64,000 nucleotides of DNA, taken from IMG/VR virus record IMGVR_UViG_3300030108_004854, positions 9,065 to 73,064 of that record; one strand, 5' to 3'. Below the pieces are notes generated by a model, which had not been told where the DNA came from, did not search any database, and saw only the letters and a list, made by a program, of their open reading frames with translations. The translations under genes and the position numbers were made by a program. The DNA is from a virus. This document shows positions 1,461-17,412 of this stretch, piece after piece (the first letter of the stretch is position 1; each line of letters begins with the position of its first letter).

Positions 1461-1463
1461 TAA

Positions 1464-1494
1464 CCTGGGCATGGCTTAGCCAGTAAGTCCCAGG
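1464..1494 (+). ncRNA. conserved stem/internal-loop RNA motif, copy 1
   Basis: CCTGGG-CA-TGGC-TTA-GCCA-GTAAG-T-CCCAGG; 7 copies with covarying stems. Confidence 0.7.
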
Positions 1495-1504
1495 CTATCC
1501 ACAG

Positions 1505-1592
1505 ACCAGAGCGAAAGCTCGAACTGCAGGTTGGTTCACCTGCTCACTCAAACACCGGAGCGAAAGCTCGAACTGCAGGTTGGTTCACCTGC
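1505..1592 (+). repeat. tandem 39-nt double-hairpin repeat (2 copies)
   Basis: ACCRGAGCGAAAGCTCGAACTGCAGGTTGGTTCACCTGC at 1505 and 1554, one mismatch. Confidence 0.9.
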
Positions 1593-1621
1593 ATTCACAG
1601 TACACTTCATCACACTTAACG

Positions 1622-2014
1622 ATGAACATTTTCAAAGCCGCAACACTCCTTGTACCACAGATCGTCGCTAACTACGACGACGAGACAAGGCACAACAAGG
1701 TAGCTGCCACCTGGACCGACCAGGAAGGTTACCGCACAACGTACGGCGTGGAGTTCCGCGCAGTACACAACTCAGAACGCATCGCTATCGAGCGAGGCAC
1801 CAGACAAGAAGACGGTAGCTTTGTCTACGTTGCACCCAATGGCAACGTTCATACCTGCACCTACGAACGCTTCATGGCCATTGCCAAAGCGCAAGGTGAG
1901 CAGGCAATGCACGCACAGTACCGTCGCAATCCACACCAGGCTCACTACCAACAAGACACACAATCGCAGGCTTACGAGCGTGTGAATGTGTGGGTACATG
2001 AGCCTGCCAACTAA
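1622..2014 (+). CDS. early hypothetical protein
   Basis: ATG after CATCACAC leader; host-like codons; terminator follows. Confidence 0.75.
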   Translation: MNIFKAATLLVPQIVANYDDETRHNKVAATWTDQEGYRTTYGVEFRAVHNSERIAIERGTRQEDGSFVYVAPNGNVHTCTYERFMAIAKAQGEQAMHAQYRRNPHQAHYQQDTQSQAYERVNVWVHEPAN

Positions 2015-2021
2015 TAACAAT

Positions 2022-2048
2022 GGGTTGCTACGGCGGCCCTTTCTTTTT
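2022..2048 (+). terminator. intrinsic terminator
   Basis: GGGTTGC-TACG-GCGGCCC then TTTCTTTTT. Confidence 0.8.
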
Positions 2049-2059
2049 ATCTATCCACA

Positions 2060-2284
2060 ATGACTATGGACCTTTACCTAGTAATCCAGTCAACCGATTT
2101 CAACGGTGACGGATACTTCCAAGAATTTATTCTTGGTATCTACGAAGACGGCGATGCAGCTAAACAGGTGCTACATAAACTCATTAAAGAACATGAGGCT
2201 GAAGAACCTCATTGCCAAGCTGACATAGATACAGAGTACTTTATCAAAGAGATGCCACTAATCCCTGCAAAGGTAATCCAATGA
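2060..2284 (+). CDS. hypothetical protein
   Basis: 74-aa acidic ORF, ATGA-coupled to the next gene. Confidence 0.7.
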   Translation: MTMDLYLVIQSTDFNGDGYFQEFILGIYEDGDAAKQVLHKLIKEHEAEEPHCQADIDTEYFIKEMPLIPAKVIQ

Positions 2285-2619
2285 TTACTACTATCAAGAC
2301 CTACAAAGACAATGGTCCGTACTTACATCAAGAAAGGTTTGACTACACAGTCGATAACCTATCTGACTTTATCAAACAAGTACGCACCATCATGGAGAGC
2401 CAAGACTCTGATGTCATTGGCGTCTATCACGACGACACATTCATAGGCGGATGGACACAGGAATGTGACTATGAACCCGACTATGAAAATGGCGGATACT
2501 ACTGCGTATCAGCTGAATACGTCAGACCACAACCAAACAGCTTTGACTGGGAGTGCATCAAGAAGTATTGCTTCCATTCAGGCACCCCTGTCAAAACCAC
2601 CATCGATTCAATCACATGA
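2281..2619 (+). CDS. hypothetical protein
   Basis: 112 aa, ATGA overlaps at both ends. Confidence 0.75.
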   Translation: MITTIKTYKDNGPYLHQERFDYTVDNLSDFIKQVRTIMESQDSDVIGVYHDDTFIGGWTQECDYEPDYENGGYYCVSAEYVRPQPNSFDWECIKKYCFHSGTPVKTTIDSIT

Positions 2620-2807
2620 CAACTAACAACATAGACAACAAAGTCATCAAGATCACCTGCCGAGATGCCTACGAATATGTAGACATCTTGGAATCAGAGA
2701 TCAAGATGCTGATCAAGAAAGATATTGTTGGTCCATCATTAATCAAACATTATCAAGATCTTCGTGATCGCATAAACATTGCTATCCACACCTATCATCA
2801 TTCCTAA
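2616..2807 (+). CDS. hypothetical protein
   Basis: Start moved to the coupled ATG at 2616. Confidence 0.6.
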   Translation: MTTNNIDNKVIKITCRDAYEYVDILESEIKMLIKKDIVGPSLIKHYQDLRDRINIAIHTYHHS

Positions 2808-2971
2808 TGACTACCTACAAAATCATTCGCTTCTATCACCCATCACAGGGTAAATACAATGAGACAGTTGAGACTGGCCTCACACTAGAAGAAGCCCAAG
2901 CATGGTGCAAAGACCCATCCACACGCAAAGACAACACGTTCTTTGACGGCTACGAGGAGGAGTACAAATGA
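2807..2971 (+). CDS. small phage protein (GLTLEEAQAWC motif)
   Basis: Manual translation MTTYKIIRFY...GLTLEEAQAWCKDPSTR...FFDGYEEEYK; TAATG coupling. Confidence 0.7.
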   Translation: MTTYKIIRFYHPSQGKYNETVETGLTLEEAQAWCKDPSTRKDNTFFDGYEEEYK

Positions 2972-3127
2972 ACATCTACAACAATGACGACACAACCAAA
3001 CGTGACTGCGATATTGTTTACGGTGCATTAACCGTAAGCACTGCAGTATTATTTCCACCGTTAGCAATTATATCCCTCGGGATGTGGTTTGCCGACAGAC
3101 AACACTATCCATCACACAATACCAAAG

Positions 3128-3388
3128 ATGACAACAACAACTAAACAAATCAGAGAAGAAGCTATTAATAGTGCCATCGAGAAAGATTGGCACGTTGCAT
3201 CAGAAGGCACTGACTTCACTGCATGTGTTATCGCATGGCACAAAGACCCAGCTACTAATTGGTGCCGCGTACTTACTGTTGTTGACGGTCAGTACCAAAC
3301 AGAAACTATACGTTGCACACCAACAGTTGTTGGTTCAGGTTATGTAACTGACCATCTCAATGATTTTAAACTTACAACTCAATCATGA
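3128..3388 (+). CDS. hypothetical protein
   Basis: ATG after CATCACAC leader. Confidence 0.7.
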   Translation: MTTTTKQIREEAINSAIEKDWHVASEGTDFTACVIAWHKDPATNWCRVLTVVDGQYQTETIRCTPTVVGSGYVTDHLNDFKLTTQS

Positions 3389-3497
3389 CAATTCAAATAG
3401 TACGTGGTAACAACCTAAAGTACGTTACTGTTGACAGCTACAAAGCACCGGGCATACGTAATAGTATTGCCCGCTTTATCTTTCACTTATTACACAA

Positions 3498-3716
3498 ATG
3501 ACTGAACGCAGAACCCAACAACAAGAGCATTTAGTTCAACCATTGACACAAACTGATGTTCACATGGTTGAACTACTAGCTCAATTACAAGGTGTACTTC
3601 CACGCACAGTTATTGAAATTGCATTACATGAATGGCTTGAAGCTAACTTCATGCGCATTAATTCATTGCATCGTAATGCAAAAGAGATCCACAATCAACT
3701 TAATTCAAAAACATGA
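3498..3716 (+). CDS. hypothetical protein, possible ribbon-helix-helix
   Basis: 72 aa; VIEIALHEWL helix pattern. Confidence 0.6.
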   Translation: MTERRTQQQEHLVQPLTQTDVHMVELLAQLQGVLPRTVIEIALHEWLEANFMRINSLHRNAKEIHNQLNSKT

Positions 3717-3762
3717 AACAACACAAGCACATCCCTTCTCCTTTCAACAAACAATCTCTAAG

Positions 3763-3788
3763 TAACAGCCAACAGCCTCTTGATTGAT
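3763..3788 (+). repeat. TAACAGCCAACAGCC box
   Basis: Identical to 1435-1460. Confidence 0.85.
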
Positions 3789-3827
3789 AAGTTTTACTTA
3801 TCATTGCGTACACTTAATCACACCACA

Positions 3828-4130
3828 ATGGACTCTTCTAAAGAACAACTATCTCGCAAGTCACAAAAAGCAAGATATATACAATATATACAAGTATTAG
3901 AGATGCGCATACATTTAGATAAACGTAAAGATAAATATGATTTTGCTGGATTCATTGATGAGTATCATCAGTTATGTATACAAATTGATGCATTATTAAA
4001 AATAGTACTTACAGATTTAACAGCAGAAGAAATCAAAGATGGCTTAGATGAAGTACCACAGGTACGTAGTCTTATTGTCACTAAAGATCTTCAACCAACT
4101 ACATCTATACACTACACTTCACTCAACTGA
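3828..4130 (+). CDS. hypothetical protein
   Basis: ATG after AATCACACCACA leader. Confidence 0.65.
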   Translation: MDSSKEQLSRKSQKARYIQYIQVLEMRIHLDKRKDKYDFAGFIDEYHQLCIQIDALLKIVLTDLTAEEIKDGLDEVPQVRSLIVTKDLQPTTSIHYTSLN

Positions 4131-4134
4131 AACA

Positions 4135-4464
4135 ATGACAACAATTTCATCACTGCCAATCTGGTATTCAGAACGTAATGCATTTAAGTATCACAACAAT
4201 TTACATGCATTAGATATGATCTATCTGCATGGTCAGATAGAACAAGAAGCAGAATTTGATTTGTTAATGTCACCAAATAATGATGTATCTATCGGTGTTT
4301 ATCCGGTCATCATTAACATTAACGATACAACTTATGCTTGTACTGCACATGTTTGGAACAACAGGAGACATGGCAATCGCAAAGGCTTAGTTGTTCTTAA
4401 CACTGACAAAGAAGCAAGAGAGTATGCACATCTCAAGTTCATTGAGAAAGCTGATCGTATTTAA
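4135..4464 (+). CDS. hypothetical protein
   Basis: ATG 4 nt after the previous stop. Confidence 0.65.
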   Translation: MTTISSLPIWYSERNAFKYHNNLHALDMIYLHGQIEQEAEFDLLMSPNNDVSIGVYPVIININDTTYACTAHVWNNRRHGNRKGLVVLNTDKEAREYAHLKFIEKADRI

Positions 4465-4503
4465 TCACACCACATTAAATCTAATCACATCACATCAAAC
4501 TCA

Positions 4504-4896
4504 ATGACTGACTCACTACTTGCATGTGTCGGATATAACGACGACACCACACAGTTTGAAGAACTAACACTCGATGACAAGATCACTGTCATCTGCAACA
4601 CAGCAATTAGAAAGATACAAAGAGAATACCCAGATCAATGCAAAGGATATGTAATTGAACGCCACCAAGGCAAACGGTGGATCAAATTAGTATGCGCGGA
4701 AATCTATGAGGATGGTCAACGTCGCAACGGAAGTGTCTGGGCATTCATTGATCCAGCCACACAAGGGGTCTACAAGCCCGCCAGTTGGAAAGCACCAGCC
4801 AAGCATGAGAGATATAACCTAGACGACTTCCAAAGCTTCTATGACGCCGCACGGATGGCCGATTGGTATGGCTCATGGCTATACCTTAGACACTAA
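4504..4896 (+). CDS. conserved phage hypothetical protein
   Basis: VWAFID..GVYKPASWKAPAKHERYNL motif recalled from T4-like cyanophage proteins. Confidence 0.8.
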   Translation: MTDSLLACVGYNDDTTQFEELTLDDKITVICNTAIRKIQREYPDQCKGYVIERHQGKRWIKLVCAEIYEDGQRRNGSVWAFIDPATQGVYKPASWKAPAKHERYNLDDFQSFYDAARMADWYGSWLYLRH

Positions 4897-5230
4897 GCCG
4901 ACTAGTACATATGAATTACTACAACATAGTTGTGTATCACCATGTACCAGCTATGTTGTAGTTGTTGTGCAATAAAGAGTAGATTTTCTTTATCTATAAA
5001 GATCTGTACATTGTGTGCTAGTACATAAGACCCACCATATTATTTATATTCTGTACATTTGTAAGTAATTTCTGTACACTTTGTGCTTATTAATTCTTTA
5101 CATAGCAGTCCCTCACTACAACCACTCACAAATGTACAGTTTTCTATATAAATAAAATATATACCCCCCAACTACTCACAACTACACACAACTCTGTATC
5201 AACACGATACATTCATTCTTTAACAAGAAG
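4897..5230. other. AT-rich non-coding element with CTGTACATT(T)GTG-like repeats; origin candidate 1
   Basis: Three direct copies (5004, 5051, 5072) and one inverted copy (5127-5139); related to 33229-33380. Confidence 0.6.
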
Positions 5231-5245
5231 TAACAGCCAACAGCC
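5231..5245 (+). repeat. TAACAGCCAACAGCC box
   Basis: Exact 15-mer. Confidence 0.85.
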
Positions 5246-5259
5246 TAATTATTAAGTAT

Positions 5260-5288
5260 CCTGGCATTGCTTGGCATGTAAGCCCAGG
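5260..5288 (+). ncRNA. conserved stem/internal-loop RNA motif, copy 2
   Basis: CCTGG-CAT-TGC-TTG-GCA-T-GTAAG-C-CCAGG. Confidence 0.65.
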
Positions 5289-5324
5289 TATCCATCACAT
5301 CACACCACACAACAGGAGACAGTT

Positions 5325-5525
5325 ATGTCCCGCATCAAAAGCTGGATTCACAACCAACTCGACAAACGAAACATGCTCAGGGAAGACATGTACTACAACG
5401 CAGACATCGCTTATGAACTAGAGCAGGCCATGCGTGAAGAAATGGAAGAACCTCAAAACTCAGAAAATCTAGACATCGACCCTAACACCCAATCAACCAA
5501 TGAATCAAACAACGTACCATTCTGA
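5325..5525 (+). CDS. hypothetical protein
   Basis: AGGAG SD before ATG; acidic tail ending VPF. Confidence 0.7.
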   Translation: MSRIKSWIHNQLDKRNMLREDMYYNADIAYELEQAMREEMEEPQNSENLDIDPNTQSTNESNNVPF

Positions 5526-5886
5526 CGAATTCATCACGGTAATCATTGCAATCATCGCAACACTATTCACTGTTTTAATCAACAACACAATCAAATGGAA
5601 ACCATCAACATCCACAACCTACACAACCAAGGACTTGTTGCCTACATACAACGATACCCTCGTAGTGGAGCAGCAAGATATTTCCTCAACCAATACAAAG
5701 TTCACGAAGAATGGGAAGATGAAGAACCAACATCAATCAAAATCCACCAGGTCTCGCAAGCCTATGGTGGCCCAGAAGAAGGTGGATGGTGGTACTCGAC
5801 AGGTGAGGCGCAATCAACTCACTTCATCTTCAGCAAGAAAGGATGTATCAAGCGATGTATCGAACTCATTGATACCTATAACTTAA
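5500..5886 (+). CDS. hypothetical membrane protein, largely overlapping the next ORF
   Basis: N-terminal TM segment FITVIIAIIATLFTVLI; 292-nt out-of-frame overlap. Confidence 0.4.
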   Translation: MNQTTYHSDEFITVIIAIIATLFTVLINNTIKWKPSTSTTYTTKDLLPTYNDTLVVEQQDISSTNTKFTKNGKMKNQHQSKSTRSRKPMVAQKKVDGGTRQVRRNQLTSSSARKDVSSDVSNSLIPIT

Positions 5887-5993
5887 CGAACCAACCTTCT
5901 ATTGAAACATCACAAGGTAACTTTGCGTATGAACTTACACTAGGCACAGGATACGCAAAAAATTATCCTACAGAACGTCCACATTACGAGTAA
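5595..5993 (+). CDS. conserved phage hypothetical protein
   Basis: AYGGPEEGGWWY ... YPTERPHYE motif recalled from phage early proteins. Confidence 0.8.
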   Translation: METINIHNLHNQGLVAYIQRYPRSGAARYFLNQYKVHEEWEDEEPTSIKIHQVSQAYGGPEEGGWWYSTGEAQSTHFIFSKKGCIKRCIELIDTYNLTNQPSIETSQGNFAYELTLGTGYAKNYPTERPHYE

Positions 5994-5999
5994 TCAGTA

Positions 6000-6038
6000 C
6001 TGGGCATTGTATTTTCCCCGACTACATGTAAGGCCCAG
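6000..6038 (+). ncRNA. conserved stem/internal-loop RNA motif, copy 3
   Basis: CTGGG-CAT-TGTA-loop-TACA-T-GTAAG-G-CCCAG. Confidence 0.7.
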
Positions 6039-6062
6039 AGAATCACATCACCTTTAATTACC

Positions 6063-6281
6063 ATGCCTAATCGCTATCGTGTCAAGTACAAACATGATCC
6101 ACCGCCAAATCCTATCCCCGGTGAAAATTACACTGTTGGTGCAGGTATCTGGTCTGCCAACATTCGTGCCCATGACATTGATGATGCACGACATCAGATC
6201 CTGAAGAACTTTCCTTACAAAAGAGCTGATGGAAAGATAGTCAACAGAATCATTGTATCCTGTCGCAAAATCTACTACTGA
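6063..6281 (+). CDS. hypothetical protein
   Basis: 72-aa ORF after AC-rich leader. Confidence 0.65.
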   Translation: MPNRYRVKYKHDPPPNPIPGENYTVGAGIWSANIRAHDIDDARHQILKNFPYKRADGKIVNRIIVSCRKIYY

Positions 6282-6284
6282 CTC

Positions 6285-6611
6285 ATGCCTAAAAACATCG
6301 TTCCAGATGAAACTCCGTCACCTGACGACCTACAAGGACTATATGGACTCGCTCAAGCTACAAAGAAGTTTGTCGAGCAAGGCACACCACCAGCTTTTGC
6401 TGTCTTTATTAATCCAAAGACTGGCAAAACTTATTGCACTACTCCAGCACAACTTGAAGGTGGTACTGCACCAGATCAAAAGACTATTGACGCCTTAATC
6501 AAAACCATTAACATCAATGACCCGAATTCAACAGCACGTCTTCAACAGGGAAGCAGTGAGCAGGAGGGGAGGAGCCCCGACGTACGGGATAACGGAGACA
6601 CCAAAACGTAA
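6285..6611 (+). CDS. hypothetical protein
   Basis: 108-aa ORF in operon position. Confidence 0.6.
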   Translation: MPKNIVPDETPSPDDLQGLYGLAQATKKFVEQGTPPAFAVFINPKTGKTYCTTPAQLEGGTAPDQKTIDALIKTININDPNSTARLQQGSSEQEGRSPDVRDNGDTKT

Positions 6612-6655
6612 GCGTCCTAAATCTAAAGGAAATCTAATGTTACTTAAGGAGTTGA

Positions 6656-6823
6656 ATGAGCGAATCAGTTGACCACTACATCGAGTACAGAGATGACATC
6701 ATGCGTATCTGCCGTGAGTATCAACTAGAAACTCGTTGCAGTAATGCATTAGTTGCATCGATGTTAATGGATCTAGCACACCGCATTGAAATTAATGACA
6801 AAGCGATCTGCCTTCAACTTTGA
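6656..6823 (+). CDS. hypothetical protein (55 aa)
   Basis: AAGGAG SD; manual translation MSESVDHYIEYRDDIMRICREY... Confidence 0.55.
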   Translation: MSESVDHYIEYRDDIMRICREYQLETRCSNALVASMLMDLAHRIEINDKAICLQL

Positions 6824-7064
6824 CAAAGACATCTTCGGTTTTAATGTAACCGAGCATGGCATCAAAAGCTACAGTAAATCATTTAAGGTTGGTCCATTTA
6901 GACAAACGATCAACCTTAATCTTGGCAATGGTCATGTAAAAGGTACGACATCGATACCTGGCACAGGCTTAGCCAAACGCTACAATATCAGTGACAAAGA
7001 CTGGCATGACTGGTTTCCGGAAGAGCCTGACTTTGGACACAAGCCTCCCATGTGGGAGGAGTAA
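6795..7064 (+). CDS. DUF4236-like protein
   Basis: SKSFKVGPFRQTINLN...TTSIPGTGL resembles the DUF4236 consensus. Confidence 0.6.
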   Translation: MTKRSAFNFDKDIFGFNVTEHGIKSYSKSFKVGPFRQTINLNLGNGHVKGTTSIPGTGLAKRYNISDKDWHDWFPEEPDFGHKPPMWEE

Positions 7065-7076
7065 CAGCCAACAGCC
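7062..7076 (+). repeat. TAACAGCCAACAGCC box
   Basis: Exact 15-mer; supplies the stop codon of the upstream gene. Confidence 0.85.
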
Positions 7077-7084
7077 TGGTTGTT

Positions 7085-7110
7085 AGACCTAGGCAAGTCT
7101 TTAAACTGTT
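7085..7110 (+). ncRNA. putative H-type pseudoknot, copy 1
   Basis: AGAC-CTAGGCAA-GTCT-TTAAAC-TGTT; loop GGCA can pair with TGTT. Confidence 0.5.
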
Positions 7111-7131
7111 GTACACAACACCACATCACAC

Positions 7132-7401
7132 ATGGCGTACATCACTGATAGACAACAAGACTTCATCATCACTTTGTACAAAAGAGTAGATGAAATTCAC
7201 TTGTTAGCTTCCAAGCTAGACATGCATGATCCACAGCGGCTCAAATATTCTGGTGCTGCTGATGAGCTGCTGCGACTTTCTGATCGACTGAAACTTCAGT
7301 GGTTGCAAGAAGCTGAGTTACTGGAATCAGTAAAACAACAAATTACTGATGAACCAATCCCATCTATTACACCAGAGGAAGAGTATGCAATCAATGCCTG
7401 A
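7132..7401 (+). CDS. hypothetical protein
   Basis: 89 aa after CATCACAC leader. Confidence 0.7.
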   Translation: MAYITDRQQDFIITLYKRVDEIHLLASKLDMHDPQRLKYSGAADELLRLSDRLKLQWLQEAELLESVKQQITDEPIPSITPEEEYAINA

Positions 7402-7684
7402 AGTAATTACTGTACACAACTGCGAGCTTGACATTCGTGATCTGGATTACGGCACTAGTTCTTGGATCGTGTCTGCAACCGTTGCTGACATGCAATTGGT
7501 ACGGCCTGCTGTCATGCATCCTGCTGACATAGCTGAGCCAGAAGAGCGTGGACCTGCACAATGCAGTGCCATCTTTGAACTAGATGAAGTATCAGGTGAT
7601 GAACAACCACCTAACGATCCAGTTGCCCTTCGTCAATACATTCAAGATATGAATCTTGATTGGGACATAGACGAAGAAAACTAA
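7394..7684 (+). CDS. hypothetical protein
   Basis: Acidic ORF, coupled start at 7394. Confidence 0.7.
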   Translation: MPEVITVHNCELDIRDLDYGTSSWIVSATVADMQLVRPAVMHPADIAEPEERGPAQCSAIFELDEVSGDEQPPNDPVALRQYIQDMNLDWDIDEEN

Positions 7685-7689
7685 CCAAT

Positions 7690-7716
7690 AGACCTGAGCA
7701 TGTCTTTAAACTGCTC
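7690..7716 (+). ncRNA. putative H-type pseudoknot, copy 2
   Basis: AGAC-CTGAGCAT-GTCT-TTAAAC-TGCTC; loop GAGCA pairs with TGCTC. Confidence 0.6.
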
Positions 7717-7741
7717 TTACTACATCACACCAAACTACACA

Positions 7742-9574: not shown

Positions 9575-9575
9575 C

Positions 9576-9631: not shown

Positions 9632-9633
9632 TT

Positions 9634-9721: not shown

Positions 9722-9741
9722 ATCATTTATTACACAACACT

Positions 9742-9918: not shown

Positions 9919-10040
9919 CCAGCACCAGGAAACTACAAAAACTGATGCTCCCTCAGGACTGACGTAGTTCTTCTGCGTCCCAACACATTCTAAATACATT
10001 TGTCTATGCATTGTAAACTCAGCCCGTCGATTTATTTTCC

Positions 10041-10597: not shown

Positions 10598-11123
10598 GCA
10601 CTGGTCGCCATTTGAAATGGCTAACATGTGCGTTACAATATCAACTTCAAGGGGAATTGCACCACAGATACTGAGGCATCGCAGCTTCACGTTCCAGGAA
10701 TTCTCTTTGAGATACGCCAATACAAATCAAATTGGTCGTGTTGAAACGCCTGAGTTACGCGCTCAAGATTTTAAAAACAGGCAAAACTCCACTCCTGATC
10801 TTAAAAATAAGTTGGGTGTTGAAAGATACGCTGCATTACAGCGTCTTGTTTCTATTCATATGGAAGATGCTGAGCATCTATACCAAGAACTGTTGAGTGC
10901 TGGTGTTGCAAAAGAGTCTGCACGTTTTGTGTTACCTCTGGCTGCACCAAGCAAACTTCATATGAATGGAACACTCAGGTCATGGGTGCATTACATCGAT
11001 CTGCGTACTGACAATGGTACGCAAAAAGAACACAAAGAGATTGCAGAGCAATGCAAAGCAATCTTCCAACAACAATTTCCTATTATTTCTGAAGCATTAT
11101 GGCCAGACCAACAGTCCAATTAG
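10458..11123 (+). CDS. thyX: FAD-dependent thymidylate synthase
   Basis: HWSPFE, QILRHRSFTFQEFSLRY ThyX motif, ESARFVLP, LRTDNGTQKEH. Confidence 0.95.
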   Translation: MQSQVQLKWVTPQAENEIVEMARVSAPKNAKNMETGPKLLRYLIKHKHWSPFEMANMCVTISTSRGIAPQILRHRSFTFQEFSLRYANTNQIGRVETPELRAQDFKNRQNSTPDLKNKLGVERYAALQRLVSIHMEDAEHLYQELLSAGVAKESARFVLPLAAPSKLHMNGTLRSWVHYIDLRTDNGTQKEHKEIAEQCKAIFQQQFPIISEALWPDQQSN

Positions 11124-11434
11124 TTTGTTCCTGTTGTGGAACAATGTTTAAACGTGAATCAAGACGCGAACAGTATCGTGTTATGCACAGACATGCAGGT
11201 CCTTATTGCAGTAGAAGCTGTGCTTCTAAAAGCAAAAGAACTTATGATCGTGTTGCCGGTAGAGAACATCCAAACTCTATTCTTACTGAGAATGATGTTA
11301 GAAGGATACGCAGGCAACTTAAATATGGTGTGCCAGTTAAGAACATCATGATTCTTACTGGTATGTCTGAGAATTGTATTCGTTCAATTCAATACAGAAA
11401 AACTTGGAAGCACGTAAAAGATTATGCAGCTTGA
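11099..11434 (+). CDS. zinc-ribbon/HTH DNA-binding protein (homing-endonuclease-associated type)
   Basis: CSCC...YCSRSC plus GREHPNSILTENDVRRIR...KTWKHV. Confidence 0.7.
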   Translation: MARPTVQLVCSCCGTMFKRESRREQYRVMHRHAGPYCSRSCASKSKRTYDRVAGREHPNSILTENDVRRIRRQLKYGVPVKNIMILTGMSENCIRSIQYRKTWKHVKDYAA

Positions 11435-11606
11435 AGATGCACTTGATCTGATCTACAAAGGTCAAACCAACGTAGCTGTCATGGCAAAAAAAGTAGGCGT
11501 CTCATTAGATGAAATGAAACGCCTGTTTGGTTATTACGTTAGTCAGCGACCTATTGATCCAGATGTATGGCAAGCTGATGTAAAACCAAGCTGGCCCTGG
11601 GCTTAA
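11424..11606 (+). CDS. small HTH-like protein
   Basis: VAVMAKKVGVSLDEMKRL. Confidence 0.6.
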   Translation: MQLEDALDLIYKGQTNVAVMAKKVGVSLDEMKRLFGYYVSQRPIDPDVWQADVKPSWPWA

Positions 11607-11759
11607 TTACTTAAGCCGTTTACGATCTAATTTGGCTTGGAACTTTTCACGTTCCTGTTTAATTTCATCCCTTGATACCCAAACCGAATGGATTGAATTC
11701 AATGTCGGGCTGGTACGTTCGTACTTAACGCCTCGATAAGTCAGTGTCTTGGTAGACAT
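11607..11759 (-). CDS. DUF4278 family small protein (50 aa)
   Basis: Manual translation MSTKTLTYRGVKYERTSP...; LTYRGVKY signature; GGAGG SD. Confidence 0.85.
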   Translation of the reverse strand: MSTKTLTYRGVKYERTSPTLNSIHSVWVSRDEIKQEREKFQAKLDRKRLK

Positions 11760-11775
11760 GATGTCCTCCGCTAAA

Positions 11776-11826
11776 ACCTAGACCCCGTTCCCTGTCTAGT
11801 GAATTGCGCCCCAGTGGGGTGAACGT
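11776..11826 (-). ncRNA. glutamine-II (Downstream-peptide) riboswitch
   Basis: CGUUC-A-CCCC-ACU-GGGG-CGCA...CUAGAC..GAACG-GG-GUCUAG: P1, P2 and pseudoknot, directly upstream of DUF4278. Confidence 0.85.
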
Positions 11827-11882
11827 ACTTGTATTTTATCACTCATCTTAGAATGAACAAAGCACCTGTTTCAAAGATCACA

Positions 11883-14042
11883 ATGTCAATAGAAAGAGAT
11901 CCGTACACTGGTGAAATAACTTATTACAATGACGCTACTGGAGCTGAAATAACTGAAGCTGAGCATAACTTAGAGCGAGACCGCCAGGCACGTTCAGCAG
12001 GTTATGAATCATTTTATGATTACGTACGTCAGGTGCAAAGAGATATGGAGGAAGAAGCATCGGCATTCATGGAAGACGGTATACCAGATACACTGGATGC
12101 ACAGGATTTTGAAAGAGCTGCTCTTGATCAACAACAACTACAACAACAAGCAGATTTTATAGATCGGCTTGGTCTTAATGATCCACCCCGTGTAAATATG
12201 CAGGAGTTAACTCCTGATAACGTATACGAAATGCGTCAGCTTGGTTTTAATAGTGCACAAGTTTCAGATGCTATTGAACGAAGAAGCAGACAATTAGATG
12301 AAGCAGGTGTATCAGCTGAGGAAAGAAACTATAGAGCAAGAGGTTACGTCGGCAATGACAGATATTTATCTGGAACAGGTGAAGGTCAAACCCTACGGTT
12401 TCTTGATCCTGAAATGCAAGCACGTTTTGAAGCAGATGTAGCAGCCGAAGAACAACGAATAAGACAAGAAAATAAACCTATCAATCGAGCACGTAGAACC
12501 TTAGCTGGAGTCAGAAATAATGTTATAGATTTTCCACGGCAAACTGGCCTTTTACTTAATCAAGTTACTGATCGCATTGATGATAACATCACTCAAGTTG
12601 TTAGAGGCTATAGAAACATTCTTGATTTAGATCGTCCTGTTTATGATCCAAAATACCTTCCTGAAGGTGCTAACCCTGACTTTAATTACTACACACAACT
12701 ACTAGAAGATTCACGTATAGGTTATTCACCTAGCAATAAAATTAGAACTAATTTAATGTTACAACCTGATGGGCGTGGATATGATTTTAGCTTTCAAGGT
12801 CCAGAAGGTTTTGCAGATTCAAAGAAATTAAAAATTCAAAATCAAAGAACAGAAGACCTTATTGCAGGCAAGAAACAATATATAGCAGACTTGTATCGCA
12901 ATAATGAAAAGGCTACTCATTCTATGACTCCTTTTAAAGATAGAATTGATCAAGAAAACCGAAAGATTAGAGATTATAGATATCGTATTAATTACAATAA
13001 GGATAAAATTAATACGATGAAATCACCTACCTATCAACCCACTTTGGGTTACATGATAGGAACAGAACTAGATAAAGTAAAACCTGGAGAATACTTTAGT
13101 CAAAATCCTATAGGTGGACCAGGAGGTCAAAGAGATAAATTGTATAGCAGAATGAGCAAAGGAGTATTGAAAGCTCAACCTTTTGGTTATGCAAAAGTAC
13201 AACGTATAAATCCAACCACTTGGTTGCGTGATGATGTACCAATGGAATGGGACCCAGGAACTTTAAAAGACCCTGCAATACGAAAAGCATTTGGTGTACC
13301 CAAAGAAACCGATGTATCTATCTACCGTGATAGAACAATGTTTGAGCAACCTATTTATCAAAAAGGCGGACCTCTTTCTTCAGGAAAAACAGCAGTCGCT
13401 CTTGGTTCGCATGAGTTTAGACTGCCACGTGCTCTTAGTAATGCAACATTAGGTGGCCTGTATGAATCTATACCATCTGCAGAAGTTATTAAAGCAACTG
13501 GTGAAGAAGGCATAGGTGCTGGTATTAAAACATATGCAAGTGAAATTATGGAAGGATTGCCTTACATGGCAGGTTTAGCTGGTGCTACTTATGTAGTTCC
13601 TGCATTAGCAAGTGTTGCACCACCAGTTCTTGGTGGACTGGGCGTGTATGAAGCTGGTCGTTCTGTCAATGAATTAAGTAGACAAACAACAGGTGAAACT
13701 GCATTATCTAAACTTCAGCAAACAGCAGGCAAGGTAGCGCCAGGTGTCTTAGGTAAACCATCAACTGGTTCTGCTTATAGATATAACGAAGATGCTAGAG
13801 CAAAAGAAGAAAGGTTAAGAAAAATTGCAAGTGGTGAACTTGTTGAGCCAATCCCACAATTAAATGCTTATACCCCCTTACCAATTTCAATGGTTACTAG
13901 ACCTCAACAAGAACTAGATGCTTATAGAGATCAACAGCCAACTGCATCTAACCCATTGGTTCAACGCATCCAACTTGCAGGTAAAAGATTCAATCCAGCT
14001 AGAGGTGAGTTTGGTTTAACTGAATTGTTTTTTGGACAATAA
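11883..14042 (+). CDS. large hypothetical protein, possibly internal virion protein
   Basis: 719 aa; TAGAAT at 11849; Gly/Ala-rich hydrophobic segment near the C-terminus. Confidence 0.75.
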   Translation: MSIERDPYTGEITYYNDATGAEITEAEHNLERDRQARSAGYESFYDYVRQVQRDMEEEASAFMEDGIPDTLDAQDFERAALDQQQLQQQADFIDRLGLNDPPRVNMQELTPDNVYEMRQLGFNSAQVSDAIERRSRQLDEAGVSAEERNYRARGYVGNDRYLSGTGEGQTLRFLDPEMQARFEADVAAEEQRIRQENKPINRARRTLAGVRNNVIDFPRQTGLLLNQVTDRIDDNITQVVRGYRNILDLDRPVYDPKYLPEGANPDFNYYTQLLEDSRIGYSPSNKIRTNLMLQPDGRGYDFSFQGPEGFADSKKLKIQNQRTEDLIAGKKQYIADLYRNNEKATHSMTPFKDRIDQENRKIRDYRYRINYNKDKINTMKSPTYQPTLGYMIGTELDKVKPGEYFSQNPIGGPGGQRDKLYSRMSKGVLKAQPFGYAKVQRINPTTWLRDDVPMEWDPGTLKDPAIRKAFGVPKETDVSIYRDRTMFEQPIYQKGGPLSSGKTAVALGSHEFRLPRALSNATLGGLYESIPSAEVIKATGEEGIGAGIKTYASEIMEGLPYMAGLAGATYVVPALASVAPPVLGGLGVYEAGRSVNELSRQTTGETALSKLQQTAGKVAPGVLGKPSTGSAYRYNEDARAKEERLRKIASGELVEPIPQLNAYTPLPISMVTRPQQELDAYRDQQPTASNPLVQRIQLAGKRFNPARGEFGLTELFFGQ

Positions 14043-14045
14043 AAG

Positions 14046-14072
14046 CTAGGCATCTTTATGTGTAAGTCCTAG
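14046..14072 (+). ncRNA. conserved stem/internal-loop RNA motif, copy 5
   Basis: CTAGG-CATCTTTATGT-GTAAG-T-CCTAG. Confidence 0.6.
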
Positions 14073-14091
14073 ACTACGCTTTATTTTATCC

Positions 14092-14517
14092 ATGCTTCCT
14101 GAAAATCAATTTCATTCCAATCAACCAATGCCGAAGCCTGCACCAGCAACTATTGATGTTGACAGGACTAAATACTATGACACTCAAGGTGTTGTAGACA
14201 GAACATTTATGAGTCGTTTTAGCATCATAAAAGCTGTAAAGAATGGTCGATTCCCTGCTCCAGAATTTAAAAAACAACGTCATTGCTTTTATTGCAAAAA
14301 GAAAGTAGATCAATGGATAGCAGATAATCCAAATTTTACTAACCTTCCTACACCAAGAACAACTACTACGCTTAATGTAACTTTTTCTGCAGCAGAATTA
14401 AAAATGATTAGTAATGCAGCTAAAGCATTGGGTTGTACAGTAGATTTTTTTGTTGCAGATGCAACACTCTGGAAAGCCCGTGGCGTAAAAAAACGATTAG
14501 AATATGAAAATAATTAA
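14092..14517 (+). CDS. AlpA-like HTH plus ribbon-helix-helix regulator
   Basis: SRFSIIKAVKNGRFPAP...VDQWI (AlpA); LNVTFSAAELKMISNAAKALGCTVDFFV (RHH). Confidence 0.7.
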   Translation: MLPENQFHSNQPMPKPAPATIDVDRTKYYDTQGVVDRTFMSRFSIIKAVKNGRFPAPEFKKQRHCFYCKKKVDQWIADNPNFTNLPTPRTTTTLNVTFSAAELKMISNAAKALGCTVDFFVADATLWKARGVKKRLEYENN

Positions 14518-14521
14518 GGGG

Positions 14522-14549
14522 TTGCAATAAATAATAAATACCGTAGTCT
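14522..14549 (+). promoter_or_regulatory. possible sigma70-type promoter of the replication operon
   Basis: TTGCAA-16 nt-TAGTCT. Confidence 0.35.
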
Positions 14550-14570
14550 TCTAAAAGATTCAACAAAACA

Positions 14571-14801
14571 TTGAGTTATTTAATTACTACGGTTATAAAT
14601 GGTATTCCCCATGCTATTTATCCAAATTCAAATGCTGGTAAGTTTGAACTAATACAGATAGTAAAAGACAGTGAGATTTCAAAAGCTTTCTGTTCTCCAA
14701 CTAAAACTGGTGCTGTTCAAATTCTTAATTGGATAAATAAAAATGACCAACAGCTTTCATTACAAGAACTCTCAGTTCAACCTGAAGCCAAATTCCTTTA
14801 A
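14571..14801 (+). CDS. hypothetical protein
   Basis: 76 aa, TTG start. Confidence 0.55.
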   Translation: MSYLITTVINGIPHAIYPNSNAGKFELIQIVKDSEISKAFCSPTKTGAVQILNWINKNDQQLSLQELSVQPEAKFL

Positions 14802-16602
14802 TGAAAACTATCTCGTTTTTGATATTGAAACAAACGGATTATACGATGAAGCAACAGAGTTATTTTGCGTGGCAATACACGATGTCGTACGAAACGAAAC
14901 TATTGGTTATGGGCCTGGGTCTATTGATAGGGCTATTGACAGGTTGGCTTCTGCTACTTGTCTTATCGGTCACAATATAATTTTTTATGATTTACCAGTA
15001 TTAAAAAAGTTACTAGACTTTAACACCACATCTCATGTCATTGACACACTCATCTGCACCAGGCTCATTTGGCCCAAAGAAAAATTACAAGAAGTCGATA
15101 CAGATCACTACCAAAATGTGCCACCTAAGCTCAGAGGGTCAGCCTCACTTAAGGCTTGGGGCTACAGACTTGGTAACTTCAAAGACAATTTTACCGATTT
15201 TTCTGCGTTCACCCCAGAAATGTTGGAGTACTGTAAACAAGATTGTAATGTCACAACCTCTTTATACCACCTCATCACCACTGACCCAATCAAAGCTTCG
15301 GCTCTTCGGCTGGAACATGATTTCGCTCAAGCAATTAATAAACAAATTAGATCAGGCTTTCCTTTTGATACTAATCAATGTTTTAATTTTGTGGATGAAC
15401 TTGAAGCTAGAAAAAAAATAGTTGAAACAGAACTTACTACTAAAGCATTTCCTCCAATTCAACATGAAGAAATCGTAACACCAAAAGCATCAAACAAAAC
15501 AAAAGGAATCATCAAGGGAGTGCCTTACACTAAAGTTACTGTTGAACATTTCAATCCTGCTTCACGACAACAAACAGTACGTCGTCTCCAAGATAAGTAC
15601 GGCTGGGTACCAGAGGCAACAACAGAGAAAGGAAATCCAATCTTAAATGATGATGTTCTTTCTCAACTTCCATACCCTGAAGCCAAGCTATTGGCTGAGT
15701 ATCAGCTGCTAAAGAAACGTCTAGGACAGATCAAAGATGGAGACAATGCATGGCTCAAACTTGTTGGTGACGATGGCAAAATGCACGGCGATCTTATTAC
15801 CAATGGTTGTATCACCGGTCGTGCTAGCCATCGAACTCCGAACATGGGGCAGATCCCAGCAGTTTATTCACCTTATGGTGATAGATGTCGTTCGTTATTT
15901 GGTCCCCCTCCTGGCCGCATTTTATTGGGTGCTGATGCTAAGGCATTGGAACTTCGCTGCTTGGCTGGTTACTTAGCACTATGGGACGGCGGCGAGTATG
16001 GCGAAGTTGTCACTGATGACAGCCAAGACATTCACACTTACAACCAACAACGATTCGGAGTTACTACACGTGACATTTCAAAACGACTACTCTACGCCGT
16101 ACTTTACGGAGCTGGCTTCATCAAAGCCGGTACAATCGTGGACCCAAAAGAAAAAAATCCCGACAAGCTTAAGCAGTTGGGAAGAGAAGCAATCATGGGT
16201 TTCATGGAAGGCGTCCCAGCGCTCCAAAAACTTAAAGCGACGCTCAAATCTAATCTTGAAAAGCGTGGGCACCTTATTGGTCTTGACCGTAGGCCTTTGT
16301 ACTGTCGCTCTGAATTCAAGGCCTTAAATGTATTGCTTCAATCTGCTGGCGCAATTATCATGAAACAAGTTGTGGTTAATCTGCATCAGCTAACAGCTAA
16401 CAGCCAATTAATATATGGATCTGATTGGGAACAACACGCCATGATTCATGATGAAGTTCAGTTGTCTGTGCAACCAGATTTAGTACAGACAATTAAACCT
16501 CTGGTATTGGAATCATTTTTAAAAGCAGGAACGTTCTATGATTTCAAGTGTCTCATTGAAGGAGACATTAAAACAGGAGCTAACTGGGCATTGACACATT
16601 GA
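14743..16602 (+). CDS. polA: family A DNA polymerase (T7 gp5-like) with 3'-5' exonuclease
   Basis: ExoI FDIETNGL, GHNIIFYD, YCKQD; motif A GADAKALELR, motif B RDISKRLLYAVLYG, motif C IHDEVQ. Confidence 0.97.
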   Translation: MTNSFHYKNSQFNLKPNSFNENYLVFDIETNGLYDEATELFCVAIHDVVRNETIGYGPGSIDRAIDRLASATCLIGHNIIFYDLPVLKKLLDFNTTSHVIDTLICTRLIWPKEKLQEVDTDHYQNVPPKLRGSASLKAWGYRLGNFKDNFTDFSAFTPEMLEYCKQDCNVTTSLYHLITTDPIKASALRLEHDFAQAINKQIRSGFPFDTNQCFNFVDELEARKKIVETELTTKAFPPIQHEEIVTPKASNKTKGIIKGVPYTKVTVEHFNPASRQQTVRRLQDKYGWVPEATTEKGNPILNDDVLSQLPYPEAKLLAEYQLLKKRLGQIKDGDNAWLKLVGDDGKMHGDLITNGCITGRASHRTPNMGQIPAVYSPYGDRCRSLFGPPPGRILLGADAKALELRCLAGYLALWDGGEYGEVVTDDSQDIHTYNQQRFGVTTRDISKRLLYAVLYGAGFIKAGTIVDPKEKNPDKLKQLGREAIMGFMEGVPALQKLKATLKSNLEKRGHLIGLDRRPLYCRSEFKALNVLLQSAGAIIMKQVVVNLHQLTANSQLIYGSDWEQHAMIHDEVQLSVQPDLVQTIKPLVLESFLKAGTFYDFKCLIEGDIKTGANWALTH

Positions 16603-16616
16603 CATGTAAGCCCCAG
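16584..16616 (+). ncRNA. conserved stem/internal-loop RNA motif, copy 6 (overlaps polA stop)
   Basis: CTGGG-CAT-TG...CA-T-GTAAG-C-CCCAG. Confidence 0.6.
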
Positions 16617-16647
16617 ATCCTACAATCACATCACACTATTAAAAACA

Positions 16648-17364
16648 ATGCACATTGCATTTCTTGTCGCTGAAGTCGTTGACAATCCACTGACTAAATA
16701 TCAGGGGATGGACAATCGAATGAATGTTGTATCTCTTCGTTTACCTGCTGTAGGTAAAAAGAAAGTTGACACATTAATTGAATACAGGTCTTACAAAGAG
16801 ATTAATCTTAGAGCGGGAGACTGTGTCCAAATTATGGATGCATCCATTCGCCACGATTACAAAACTAGAGAATGGTGGTTGATGGGAGGCAATCTTGAAC
16901 GACGTGAAGCACCATGTCCTCCATACAACTATTGCATATTTAGTGGTCGTGTGATCAAAGATCTAGATGTATCTGATCCACGCCAGTTTACTAGTACAGA
17001 AAGTGGTTTTCTTATTGCTAAAACCACACTCAGTATTACAGCTGGTGGAGGTGAATCAGATTTAATTCCAATTACTGCAATCAATTCATCTGATGCTAAA
17101 TACAAACCAGCTCAATTATTAGCTGATATGGCAGCACGTAAAGGAATGGGTTTAACAGTTAGAGGAACATTAGTTACTGATTCTTGGACAGACAAAGAAT
17201 CTGGAGAGATTAGATATAAAACCGAAATTATGTTAAAAGGTTTTACCATGGCTCCTAAAGCTAAAGCTCAAGAAATTAAACCACGTGCTGAAGTGCCTGT
17301 TGGTGCGGAACCAAAGTCACTTTGGAAACCGTTAGACAGTGAGGATGACAACGATCCTTTTTGA
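16648..17364 (+). CDS. ssb: single-stranded DNA-binding protein (probable tandem OB folds)
   Basis: VRGTLVTDSWTDKESGEIRYKTEI SSB motif; acidic tail DDNDPF. Confidence 0.8.
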   Translation: MHIAFLVAEVVDNPLTKYQGMDNRMNVVSLRLPAVGKKKVDTLIEYRSYKEINLRAGDCVQIMDASIRHDYKTREWWLMGGNLERREAPCPPYNYCIFSGRVIKDLDVSDPRQFTSTESGFLIAKTTLSITAGGGESDLIPITAINSSDAKYKPAQLLADMAARKGMGLTVRGTLVTDSWTDKESGEIRYKTEIMLKGFTMAPKAKAQEIKPRAEVPVGAEPKSLWKPLDSEDDNDPF

Positions 17365-17379
17365 AGCTATACTTCCAGC

Positions 17380-17412
17380 CTAGGCATTTGCCCTTGTCAA
17401 TGTAAGCCCTAG
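17380..17412 (+). ncRNA. conserved stem/internal-loop RNA motif, copy 7
   Basis: CTAGG-CAT-TTG...CAA-T-GTAAG-C-CCTAG. Confidence 0.65.

Follow-up and report, generated by a model that had tools for sequence, protein, structure and literature searches.

A strand-specific, covarying two-helix hairpin with a fixed internal loop lies between early genes of S-EIV1-like cyanophages

We describe a small hairpin, made up of two helices and a fixed internal loop, that lies between the early genes of an S-EIV1-like cyanophage and of many of its uncultured relatives. The window analysed is a stretch of 64,000 nucleotides of this phage, whose polA is 58% identical to that of Synechococcus phage S-EIVl. 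The initial annotation had proposed a structured, covarying and strand-specific element, and this is borne out by covariation measured without filtering and by model matches that all fall on the polA strand. Our preferred reading, to which we give somewhat less than an even chance, is that a specific protein binds the element, which would serve as an RNA punctuation signal in the processing or stability of the transcript.

All seven copies first reported were found again at their places on the + strand, both by pattern search and by covariance model. The pattern GGCA-N6-36-GTAAGNCC has eight matches in the window, all on the + strand, versus 0.39 expected, and none of 100 shuffles reached eight. 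The eighth match, at 24429, was treated as chance, as no covariance model recovers that position. Model R1 is a covariance model made from the seven copies; searched against the whole window without filters, it scored them at 30.5-50.1 bits, the best other match having 13.6 bits.

Copy 1 (1464-1494; 37.0 bits with R1 and 28.7 bits with covariance model R2) begins 5 nt past the stop of a 50-aa ORF (1307-1459) and has an outer stem CCUGGG/CCCAGG, a core C-A ... G-UAAG-U and an inner hairpin UGGC-UUA-GCCA. Copy 2 (5260-5288; R1 40.0 bits), with an outer stem CCUGG/CCAGG, is followed after 36 nt by an ATG at 5325 and has a AACAGCCAACAGCC box upstream at 5232. In copy 3 (6000-6038; R1 37.2 bits) the inner hairpin is longer and the outer stem is CUGGG/CCCAG. 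The copy starts 7 nt past the stop of ORF 5595-5993, and 24 nt separate its stem from the ATG at 6063. One downstream gene had been called AlpA-like, a label that gains no support here: neither Pfam nor PHROG gave a match at E<=0.01 for the ORFs that follow copies 2 and 3. Copy 4 (9582-9627; R1 30.5 bits, and under R2 only a partial match of 13.7 bits) has four outer pairs, a U.U mismatch and a long inner hairpin. It starts 8 nt after the stop of a PcfJ-like gene (7700-9574) and ends 6 nt before the tRNA-Leu gene (anticodon taa; 9634-9721, + strand) directly downstream. Copy 5 (14046-14072; R1 40.2 bits, R2 41.9 bits) is the shortest form at 27 nt, 4 nt past the stop of a 737-aa ORF (11829-14042) and 19 nt ahead of the ATG at 14092. 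Copy 6 (16584-16616; R1 50.1 bits) precedes the ssb ATG at 16648 by 31 nt, and copy 7 (17380-17412; R1 42.6 bits; outer stem CUAGG/CCUAG) lies 16 nt past the ssb stop (17364) and 22 nt before the ATG of a DUF5895 gene at 17435. The tRNA-Leu and ssb (16648-17364) genes were correctly named as downstream neighbours. Copy 6 does not simply follow a stop codon, as its 5' half contains the last five DNA polymerase A codons (W-A-L-T-H) and the stop at 16585-16602 (gene 14743-16602). Some window copies also have flanking boxes in common, AACAGCCAACAGCC upstream and ATCACATCAC downstream.

The corrected fold has a 5-bp outer stem, a single-base bulge and a C:G pair; next come the internal loop, with A-U on the 5' side and U-G-U-A-A on the 3' side, and a variable inner hairpin. 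The nearly fixed asymmetric loop reads GG-C-A-U on the 5' strand and U-G-U-A-A-G-N-CC on the 3' strand, with U-A-A and N unpaired and A13 facing G42, the first G of GUAAG. C12 most likely pairs with G46, the last G of GUAAG; C12:G46 is replaced by U:A in 2 unique sequences, from 6 loci. Relative to the hairpin drawn in the initial annotation, the inner helix has to be moved one position further in, with N15:N40 paired in 134/135 (CG 85, UA 44) and N16:N39 in 111/131. The compensatory outer-stem changes CTGGG/CCCAG, CTAGG/CCTAG and CCTGG/CCAGG are as described. CA and GTAAG, taken to be invariant, are so within the window but not across the family, in which position 13 is G in 8/122 unique copies and the first G of GTAAG is A in 10/135 copies.

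Covariation in homologues, on which the proposal had been staked, is present. Assessed without any pairing filter, alignment A4 has 91.7% of cells paired versus 78.3% after shuffling, a value that none of 500 shuffles reached, and a covariation score of 0.365 versus 0.118 shuffled and at most 0.122 when slid; both sides change in six of its nine pairs. At the position adjoining GG/CC, 91 of 102 unique sites on the + strand are paired (GC 49, AU 27, UA 12, GU 3), versus 6/17 sites on the - strand. The commonest length, 28 nt (28/123 unique copies), comprises five outer pairs, one C:G and three to five inner pairs, a total helix of about 9-11 pairs. The inner hairpins may be very short or extend to a few tens of bases, and are frequently mismatched, which in our judgement suits RNA folding better than cruciform extrusion; the apical loops have 3-10 bases or are branched, and vary in sequence and length. 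Folding is more stable on the + strand in 69 copies, on the - strand in 44 and equal in 10, and there are 30 G.U pairs versus 31 A.C mismatches. The apical segments show no RNA-specific bias, TAAG occurring in 18 inner segments and its complement CTTA in 16. G is scarce in the flanks, which is what single-stranded RNA would show; the 5' flank is A-rich and positions +3 to +5 past the stem are U-rich (about 47-50% T).

The survey set consisted of 80 related loci, 1.43 Mb in total, and the query models came from the seven window copies only. The seven-copy model gave 152 matches at E<=1 and the refined-structure model 172 at E<=0.1, every one of them on the polA strand, and a rule-based scan of the related loci found 175 sites on the + strand and 4 on the - strand, versus 7 in shuffled loci. 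Up to 9 copies occur within about 20 kb of one genome. In the isolate S-EIVl, whose elements lie at KJ410740.1 41439-41475, 40729-40784 and 9463-9490 (- strand), all three rule-based copies fall between genes and have the orientation of their annotated neighbours. On the host side, 151 genomes (the family of a genome labelled Synechococcaceae) gave four weak matches only. The motif is not carried by the hosts, and therefore a host factor of such specificity has no obvious host targets.

The scatter of copies among relatives could reflect a selfish or recombination-prone repeat, REP/MITE-like or similar to T4-type promoter-stem-loop cassettes, spreading between junctions with no dedicated expression role. 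Copy number per locus varies from 0 to 9 in the rule-based scan, the positions are not all conserved (the copy after polA is found mainly in the closest relatives), and the boxes AACAGCCAACAGCC and ATCACATCAC common to some window copies would also suit such a repeat. We regard this as very unlikely, given the 175 to 4 strand bias, which is not that of a REP/MITE-like palindrome found in either orientation along with a transposase, and unpaired loop bases that are strictly kept while the stems covary. Furthermore, the element is kept even at sites of overlap with conserved coding sequence, and a non-exhaustive gene search of the scanned ORFs against Pfam or PHROGs found no transposase-like family.

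With related loci not deduplicated, none of 157 copies lies inside an ORF, the median distance from the upstream stop to the stem is 8 nt, and the next ATG follows the stem by 20-39 nt in 119 of 133 copies (median 28). This placement between genes on the transcript fits a role in gene expression. The element also precedes 42 of 57 + strand tRNA-Leu genes at 3-4 nt (one of them at 8 nt), many of these 42 copies being orthologues of one arrangement and not independent cases. In three loci (L065, L100 and L106) the sole credible match is the copy at the position that adjoins the tRNA in relatives, the others having 15 bits or fewer.

The distance to the start codons invites an explanation at the level of translation. 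A hairpin just outside the ribosome footprint could recruit or position the 30S subunit on mostly Shine-Dalgarno-less leaders, or could be the operator of a phage translational repressor of many early genes, following the RegA-like logic of one phage repressor acting on many genes. The narrow 20-39 nt spacing is consistent with this, as is a stem-to-ATG leader that is depleted in G and has no fixed purine-rich box; by our own reading, an AGGAG-like stretch is missing from four of the five window leaders inspected for such a box. A bound factor is likewise suggested by the fixed loop. However, the most widely kept copy precedes a tRNA and not an ORF, and it is the only credible copy that the three loci above retain. 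The tight spacing may reflect genome compaction, as the upstream gap is tight too, and no candidate repressor was found among the ORFs scanned. Overall, we consider control of translation improbable.

A transcription start just past the hairpin would suit the spacing to the tRNA 5' end and the start codons equally well. The element might be a hairpin-dependent promoter for an unrecognised phage RNA polymerase, as in N4, or a nut/put-like antitermination site for elongating host polymerase. Its orientation is strictly that of the genes, the geometry (3-4 nt to the tRNA 5' end, 20-39 nt to ATGs) suits such a start, and terminators inside the early region would give an antiterminator a target. 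In N4, the start lies a few bases past the hairpin base (PMC4496689), and fixed bases in a stem whose other bases need only pair are part of N4 promoter logic too. Against a promoter, the 73-kb record gave no match to a T7-type RNA polymerase or a sigma-70 domain, in a search that was weak for PF00940, where control genomes were silent too. The largest ORF, of 1097 aa, gave no family, PDB or Atlas lead and compares with about 3500 aa for the N4 virion RNA polymerase (PMC4496689). The shape is also not that of an N4-type hairpin promoter: there are two helices, the internal loop is fixed, and the apical loops are branched or have 3-10 bases. With its 5-base asymmetry and variable, mismatched inner hairpins, we infer that such a structure would hardly extrude from duplex DNA. 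Boxes of the -10 or -35 type do not stand at a fixed distance: the flanks of 139 unique copies have no -10-like box and no conserved TAnnnT column, and no -35/-10 hexamers with 16-18 nt spacing, as in a sigma-70 promoter, occupy a fixed place relative to the element. Promoter-like sites in positions 1-20000 number 34 versus 50 expected, and only copy 6 overlaps a strong one. The S-EIVl copies sit about 3 kb inside a gene block and not at its start. Nut or put sites number one or two per operon, unlike an element with up to 9 copies per 20 kb. A signal of this kind at the level of transcription thus appears unlikely.

Known RNA families and signals were also compared with the element. Rfam 15 searched at E<=5 over positions 1-18000 gave no match overlapping any of the seven copies, in agreement with the view that this is not a named family; at gathering scores it gave only tRNA and Glutamine-II riboswitch in the window, and the motif strings had no match in a literature search. 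The element had been said to have no U-tract and not to be an intrinsic terminator, and indeed no copy is directly followed by a T-run and none of the seven is in the terminator-like list. Intrinsic-terminator-like sites with T-runs exist elsewhere in the region (1249-1266 and 2022-2039), so the element is not needed as a terminator. The proposed protein- or ligand-binding loop is upheld in part, since a conserved internal loop fits a trans-acting factor; a riboswitch-type ligand role, in which one aptamer precedes the genes of one pathway, is unlikely, with up to 9 copies in about 20 kb ahead of unrelated genes (ssb, DUF5895, family-less small ORFs) and a tRNA. The element is not a kink-turn, which has a 3-base bulge followed 3' by tandem sheared G.A and A.G pairs; here the bulged strand runs G42, U-A-A and a G46 paired with C12, opposite C-A and not G-A. 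A lambda boxB/nut site carries a conserved GNRA-like apical loop on a 5-bp stem, an assignment that was rejected here on apical loops that vary and on up to 9 copies per locus.

Returning to punctuation by a bound protein, the element would be a cis-acting signal carried by the long early and replication-gene transcripts of S-EIV1-like cyanophages. Once transcribed, it would fold into two stacked helices joined by the nearly fixed asymmetric loop. A sequence- and shape-specific protein would bind this loop and punctuate the polycistronic RNA, either cutting beside the hairpin or guarding it. The upstream message would then be left with a protective 3' hairpin, and the downstream message or tRNA-Leu would start after a short, G-poor, unstructured leader. 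Since a plain hairpin is enough for 3' protection, the model needs an additional binding partner; the search for a phage nuclease or RNA-binding protein found none, as the small early ORFs have no family and no PDB or Atlas leads. The sites of cyanobacterial RNase E are A/U-rich and single-stranded, with A at -3 and U at +2 (PMC8682795), and the A-rich 5' flank and U-rich +3 to +5 are compatible with such cutting, a match that is not specific. A bolder version, which we think doubtful, is that S-EIV1-like phages own a dedicated putative nuclease or guard that reads the A-U / U-G-U-A-A loop, cuts or protects at every copy and frees tRNA-Leu from the message running into it, the ancestral copy having stood before tRNA-Leu and later spread to other junctions. 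If true, such dedicated-protein punctuation would be the phage equivalent of what Cas6 does in cutting CRISPR repeats, or of mitochondrial tRNA punctuation.

Among known systems, the RNase III signals of phage T7 number several per genome in short early-transcript spacers and are related two-helix hairpins with an internal loop. The cyanophage element resembles them in its several related copies in intergenic spacers, in having two helices and an internal loop, and in an expected outcome of a processed message ending in a protective hairpin. Its intercistronic position is also that of a T7-type site. However, RNase III sites of this type have about two helical turns of duplex, for which the 9-11 pairs of the common 28-nt form are short; the cyanophage helices are much shorter than those of T7, and the element conserves a specific asymmetric loop and not duplex length. 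Lambda-type nut sites (boxA + boxB) and HK022 put sites are small early-transcript hairpins read by protein or polymerase, and the cyanophage element, if it acts as RNA, would likewise be a small hairpin in early transcripts. In contrast to boxB, which conserves the apical loop, it conserves the internal loop while the apical loop varies; no boxA-like sequence is conserved across the family, and nut/put sites occur once or twice per operon versus up to 9 copies per cyanophage locus. Cluster K mycobacteriophage start-associated sequences and T4-type promoter-stem-loop cassettes are similarly lineage-specific junction repeats co-oriented with genes. What mainly marks these out is their sequence or a host-type promoter, whereas the cyanophage element is recognised by its covarying fold and fixed loop, and promoter boxes were not found. 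The 11-nt GAAA tetraloop receptor, with its A-A platform (CCUAAG...UAUGG), offers a lead only: in both, UAAG faces (Y)A-U on the other strand and a G:Y pair closes the motif, but the register differs, as the flanking CC/GG pairs are absent and N15 covaries with N40 and not with G42. Finally, the N4 virion RNA polymerase, of about 3500 aa, has three promoters with a 5-7 bp stem and a 3-base purine-rich loop centred near -11, and the hairpins form in DNA, on the template strand (PMC4496689). The two systems share a strand-specific hairpin upstream of early genes, some fixed bases among others that need only pair, and a product that starts at a short, fixed distance; the cyanophage element differs in its two helices, 5-base asymmetry, variable apical hairpin and up to 9 copies per locus, and in a record where a weak search found no polymerase gene.

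Every one of the seven copies of the hairpin element claimed in the initial annotation was present at its position (copy 1, 1464-1494; copy 2, 5260-5288; copy 3, 6000-6038; copy 4, 9582-9627; copy 5, 14046-14072; copy 6, 16584-16616; copy 7, 17380-17412). The pattern GGCA-N6-36-GTAAGNCC occurs eight times, in all cases on the + strand (8/8), against 0.39 occurrences expected. We built a covariance model, R1, from the seven window copies and ran it over the whole window without filters; only these seven copies scored above 30 bits, with the next match at 13.6 bits. Hence the copy number is seven, and the eighth pattern match, at 24429, which R1 does not match, is ascribed to chance. Near-matches at 7082 and 56413 were dropped, as no model matches either, and no copy of the element was found in the 9 kb preceding the window in the record.

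The source, an IMG/VR virus record, has 73,064 bases and is estimated to be 93% complete, the window being its bases 9065-73064. The family-A DNA polymerase, polA (14743-16602, +), is 58.5% identical to that of the closest isolate, Synechococcus phage S-EIVl (KJ410740.1), and its identity to every other phage record is at most 44%. A near-identity DNA search against isolated phages matched P-SSP7 records alone, over 41 nt at the beginning of the tRNA-Leu gene. The first 21 kb of the window form a + strand gene block with many small ORFs lacking any family, a PcfJ-like protein (7700-9574), tRNA-Leu(taa) (9634-9721), ThyX, a 737-aa protein without a family, polA, an SSB-like protein and a DUF5895 protein. 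Within this block a Glutamine-II riboswitch on the - strand (11777-11828; 44.3 bits, gathering score 33) lies directly 5' of a 50-aa ORF (11607-11759, -) and forms an antisense island.

In order to follow the element into relatives we assembled 80 viral loci through an alignment of three polA proteins, a search with a single protein having given no match, and oriented every locus with polA on the + strand. R1, trained only on the seven window copies, found 152 matches at E<=1, all 152 on the + strand. A model of the same copies with a corrected structure (R3) found 172 at E<=0.1, and a model trained on the R1 matches (R2) found 179 at E<=0.01, again without exception on the + strand. A rule-based scan, which uses no model, gave 179 matches with 175 on the + strand, compared to 7 matches in shuffled loci. 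By this rule 57 of the 80 loci carry at least one copy, with a range of 0-9 per locus; by our own reading of the locus data, most of the copy-less loci have little sequence 5' of polA. The isolate S-EIVl itself has three rule-based copies (KJ410740.1 41439-41475, 40729-40784 and 9463-9490, - strand), all three intergenic and on the same strand as the flanking annotated genes, and R2 scores two of them at 32-36 bits. Furthermore, the exact consensus is found in at least 120 viral contigs. Among the 120 loci listed, 74 code for a protein related to one of the window; in the other 46, the largest group (21) has the typical length of 28 nt and 29 have the CATC...GTGT form. The element is real and belongs to a family far more extensive than the window alone reveals. 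One related record of 76.8 kb carries a copy at the very end of its contig (about 76730-76758; 17018-17064, -, in the corresponding locus) on the strand opposite to the other copies.

The pairing was measured in + strand sites with a single GGCA 5' of GTAAGNCC, a selection in which pairing was never required. The base beside GG pairs with the base beside CC in 91 of 102 unique + strand sites (GC 49, AU 27, UA 12, GU 3) in comparison to 6/17 on the - strand, which bears out the earlier proposal of a covarying, structured element. The inner-helix register proposed with it did not survive. That fold, which joined C12 with the first G of GUAAG and A13 with N41 (alignment positions of the element), pairs N16 with N38 in only 13/125 copies, whereas the refined register pairs N16 with N39 in 111/131 using four pair types. 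The adjacent N15:N40 is paired in 134 of 135 unique copies (CG 85, UA 44). N14 stands opposite N41 mostly as U.U (84), otherwise as G:C (28), C:G (8), G.U (6) or A:U (6), and A13 opposite G42 never forms a standard pair (A.G 115, G.G 10, A.A 9, G.A 1). C12 and the final G of GUAAG vary only in a tRNA-adjacent variant (six loci, two unique sequences), where C12 and G46 jointly become U and A; this counts as one event, and the joint change favours a C12:G46 pair.

In an alignment fitted to the refined structure the paired fraction of cells is 91.7%, a value that none of 500 shuffles reaches (78.3% on shuffling); the covariation score of 0.365 compares with 0.118 after shuffling and no more than 0.122 when partners are slid, and six of nine pairs have changed on both sides. 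Such an alignment is biased towards its own structure, a bias from which the unfiltered pairing test and the register counts are free. The refined model R3 is also the more sensitive, with about 150 matches at E<=0.01 by our own count against about 90 for R1. In the refined fold, therefore, an outer stem of five (sometimes six) pairs is followed by a single bulged base, usually U, and by a C:G pair. Further in lies an internal loop, in which A-U on the 5' strand faces U-G-U-A-A on the 3' strand, and an apical hairpin of free sequence completes the element, whose total length is 25-63 nt, most commonly 28. It is a folded, strand-specific element with a fixed unpaired core. Comparisons of + and - strand folding and of G.U with A.C do not tell the two strands apart, and a second GUAAG in the apical loop of a sub-family is not enriched (18 against 16 for its complement).

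Placement was scored in 157 copies, namely 150 aligned R1 matches and the window's seven, with identical loci kept. None of the 157 lies within an ORF; the stem begins a median of 8 nt after the upstream ORF end (133 copies with an ORF end nearby, identical loci kept), and the next ATG-started ORF follows 20-39 nt beyond it in 119 of the 133 copies not followed by a tRNA (median 28). The gene-junction placement noted from the window alone extends to the family, and copies occur only at junctions of the early/replication block. This spacing, together with leaders mostly without a Shine-Dalgarno sequence, would suit control of translation, a role we consider unlikely. It would equally suit a transcription start site just past the hairpin, as in N4 (PMC4496689), and a transcription signal seems to us similarly doubtful; if hairpin promoters were the answer, S-EIV1-like genomes would conceal an RNA polymerase that has escaped recognition. 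The flanks are G-poor, A-rich immediately upstream and U-rich at +3 to +5, and contain no conserved -10-like column. Of the sigma-70-like sites in the region the best, TTGACA-16-TACAAT (11 of 12; 16599-16626), overlaps copy 6, and a second, ATGACA-17-TATACT (17345-17373), stops 6 nt short of copy 7; neither has a counterpart conserved across the family. The element is not a sigma-70 promoter and, in line with the initial annotation, not an intrinsic terminator either.

Several other repeats lie near the element. A box, AACAGCCAACAGCC, occurs nine times at up to two mismatches against 0.40 expected, with 8/9 on the + strand (879, 1436, 3764, 5232 and 7063 exact; 695 and 16392 with one mismatch). 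It usually begins with the TAA stop of the upstream ORF and is found 5' of copies 1 and 2, and also alone before other small hairpins (3764, 7063). Directly 3' of copy 1 are two adjoining 44-nt repeats (1500-1543 and 1549-1592, 93% alike), each with a GAGC-GAAA-GCUC hairpin and a GCAGGU...ACCUGC hairpin; as they overlap the listed TTG start of ORF 1580-2014, this ORF probably starts later. A CA-rich leader, ATCACATCAC, with 14 matches against 6 expected, recurs downstream of copies 2, 3 and 6, ahead of the next start codon, and also before other starts (4484-4498, 5294-5308, 6042-6051, 7120-7129, 16625-16634). Two copies of a 25-nt repeat (7084-7108 and 7689-7713, 88% alike) are found at the start codons 7132 and 7700, either just 5' of the codon or spanning it.

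A common position of the element is before the phage tRNA. The 80 loci contain 57 + strand tRNA-Leu(taa) genes. A rule-conforming element precedes 42 of them, at a distance of 3 nt in 23 cases, 4 nt in 18 and 8 nt in one; at three others the element has an imperfect outer stem, as in window copy 4, at six it is the U:A variant, and at six it is absent. In the class with a 3-4 nt spacer, a conserved small ORF ending ...EPLPxDHTW..SIDVxVSPS crosses the element, which encodes its last ~13 residues; its stop codon forms the spacer and abuts the first base of tRNA-Leu in most relatives (examples are L069 5688-5766, L132 5406-5463 and the S-EIVl locus L046, about 15745-15831). These tRNA-adjacent copies are largely orthologous rather than independent cases. 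In three loci that are almost copy-less despite a full upstream flank (L065, L100, L106), the tRNA-adjacent copy alone remains. Copy 6 of the window, like the copies crossed by the small ORF, overlaps coding sequence, its 5' half being in common with the last polA codons. Hence the element can coexist with coding sequence, which argues for selection on the element itself; that it is a selfish repeat appears very improbable.

Rfam 15 contains no family that matches the element at gathering scores or at E<=5, in agreement with the earlier view that it belongs to no named family. A search of 151 genomes, drawn from the family to which a genome labelled Synechococcaceae belongs, gave four weak matches of 22-25 bits, and the element is not a host motif. 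One of these, on a 3.7-kb contig (L494, G139:C77; 25.4 bits), has an ACAGG...CCUGU outer stem and, after it, a leader low in G and then an ATG; this copy looks plausible, with a context phage-like by eye, and may represent phage DNA binned with, or infecting, the cell. The exact consensus also has at least 120 single matches in cellular genomes of unrelated bacteria. We read these as chance, given our own estimate of about 500 (18 fixed bases, 31 spacings, 596 billion bases) and the low model scores, mostly 15-25 bits among the matches listed. Literature searches gave no match to 11-base motif strings, all text matches being owed to the short string CTGGGCAT, and a search for conserved intergenic stem-loops of cyanophage early genes gave only unrelated work. 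No RNA motif appears in the titles and abstract openings of the part of the S-EIV1 literature covered, to which the original S-EIV1 description does not belong. Repeated structured signals between phage early genes are a known kind; the present family, with its fixed loop and tRNA-Leu association, matches nothing in Rfam 15 or among the papers retrieved.

S-EIV1-like phages form a large lineage of cyanobacterial viruses, most of it uncultured, and in one published record 68 of 75 annotated genes in the stretch examined are 'hypothetical'. An abundant, covariation-defined element gives a clear, testable handle on early gene expression in this lineage, and its occurrence in the cultured isolate S-EIVl makes experiments possible. 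The model also marks gene boundaries and strand in contigs which offer gene callers little.

Our data suggest with good confidence that the element acts as RNA. Its orientation always follows the genes, its flanks resemble unstructured RNA, and searches of the 73-kb record gave no phage RNA polymerase or sigma domain; inner hairpins so variable and mismatched also seem ill suited to extrusion from duplex DNA. A loop that stays fixed, next to helices in which only pairing matters, makes a trans-acting reader likely; should this reader be a specific protein, it and the element would form a new RNA-protein recognition module, which could also be of use for gene expression in cyanobacteria. No usable partner protein or polymerase was found among the 737-aa, 1097-aa and PcfJ-like proteins and the small early ORFs. 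As one conserved site precedes a tRNA, the simplest reading is a role common to mRNA and tRNA precursors, which would be processing or end protection. Cyanobacterial RNase E, whose preferred sites in single-stranded RNA have A at -3 and U at +2 (PMC8682795), could cut the element flanks, the fit being weak. Our best explanation, held tentatively, is that the element may provide intercistronic punctuation, working in the manner of the RNase III sites of T7. In contrast to those sites, its duplex is too short and its loop is specific, and hence it is not a member of the T7 RNase III class.
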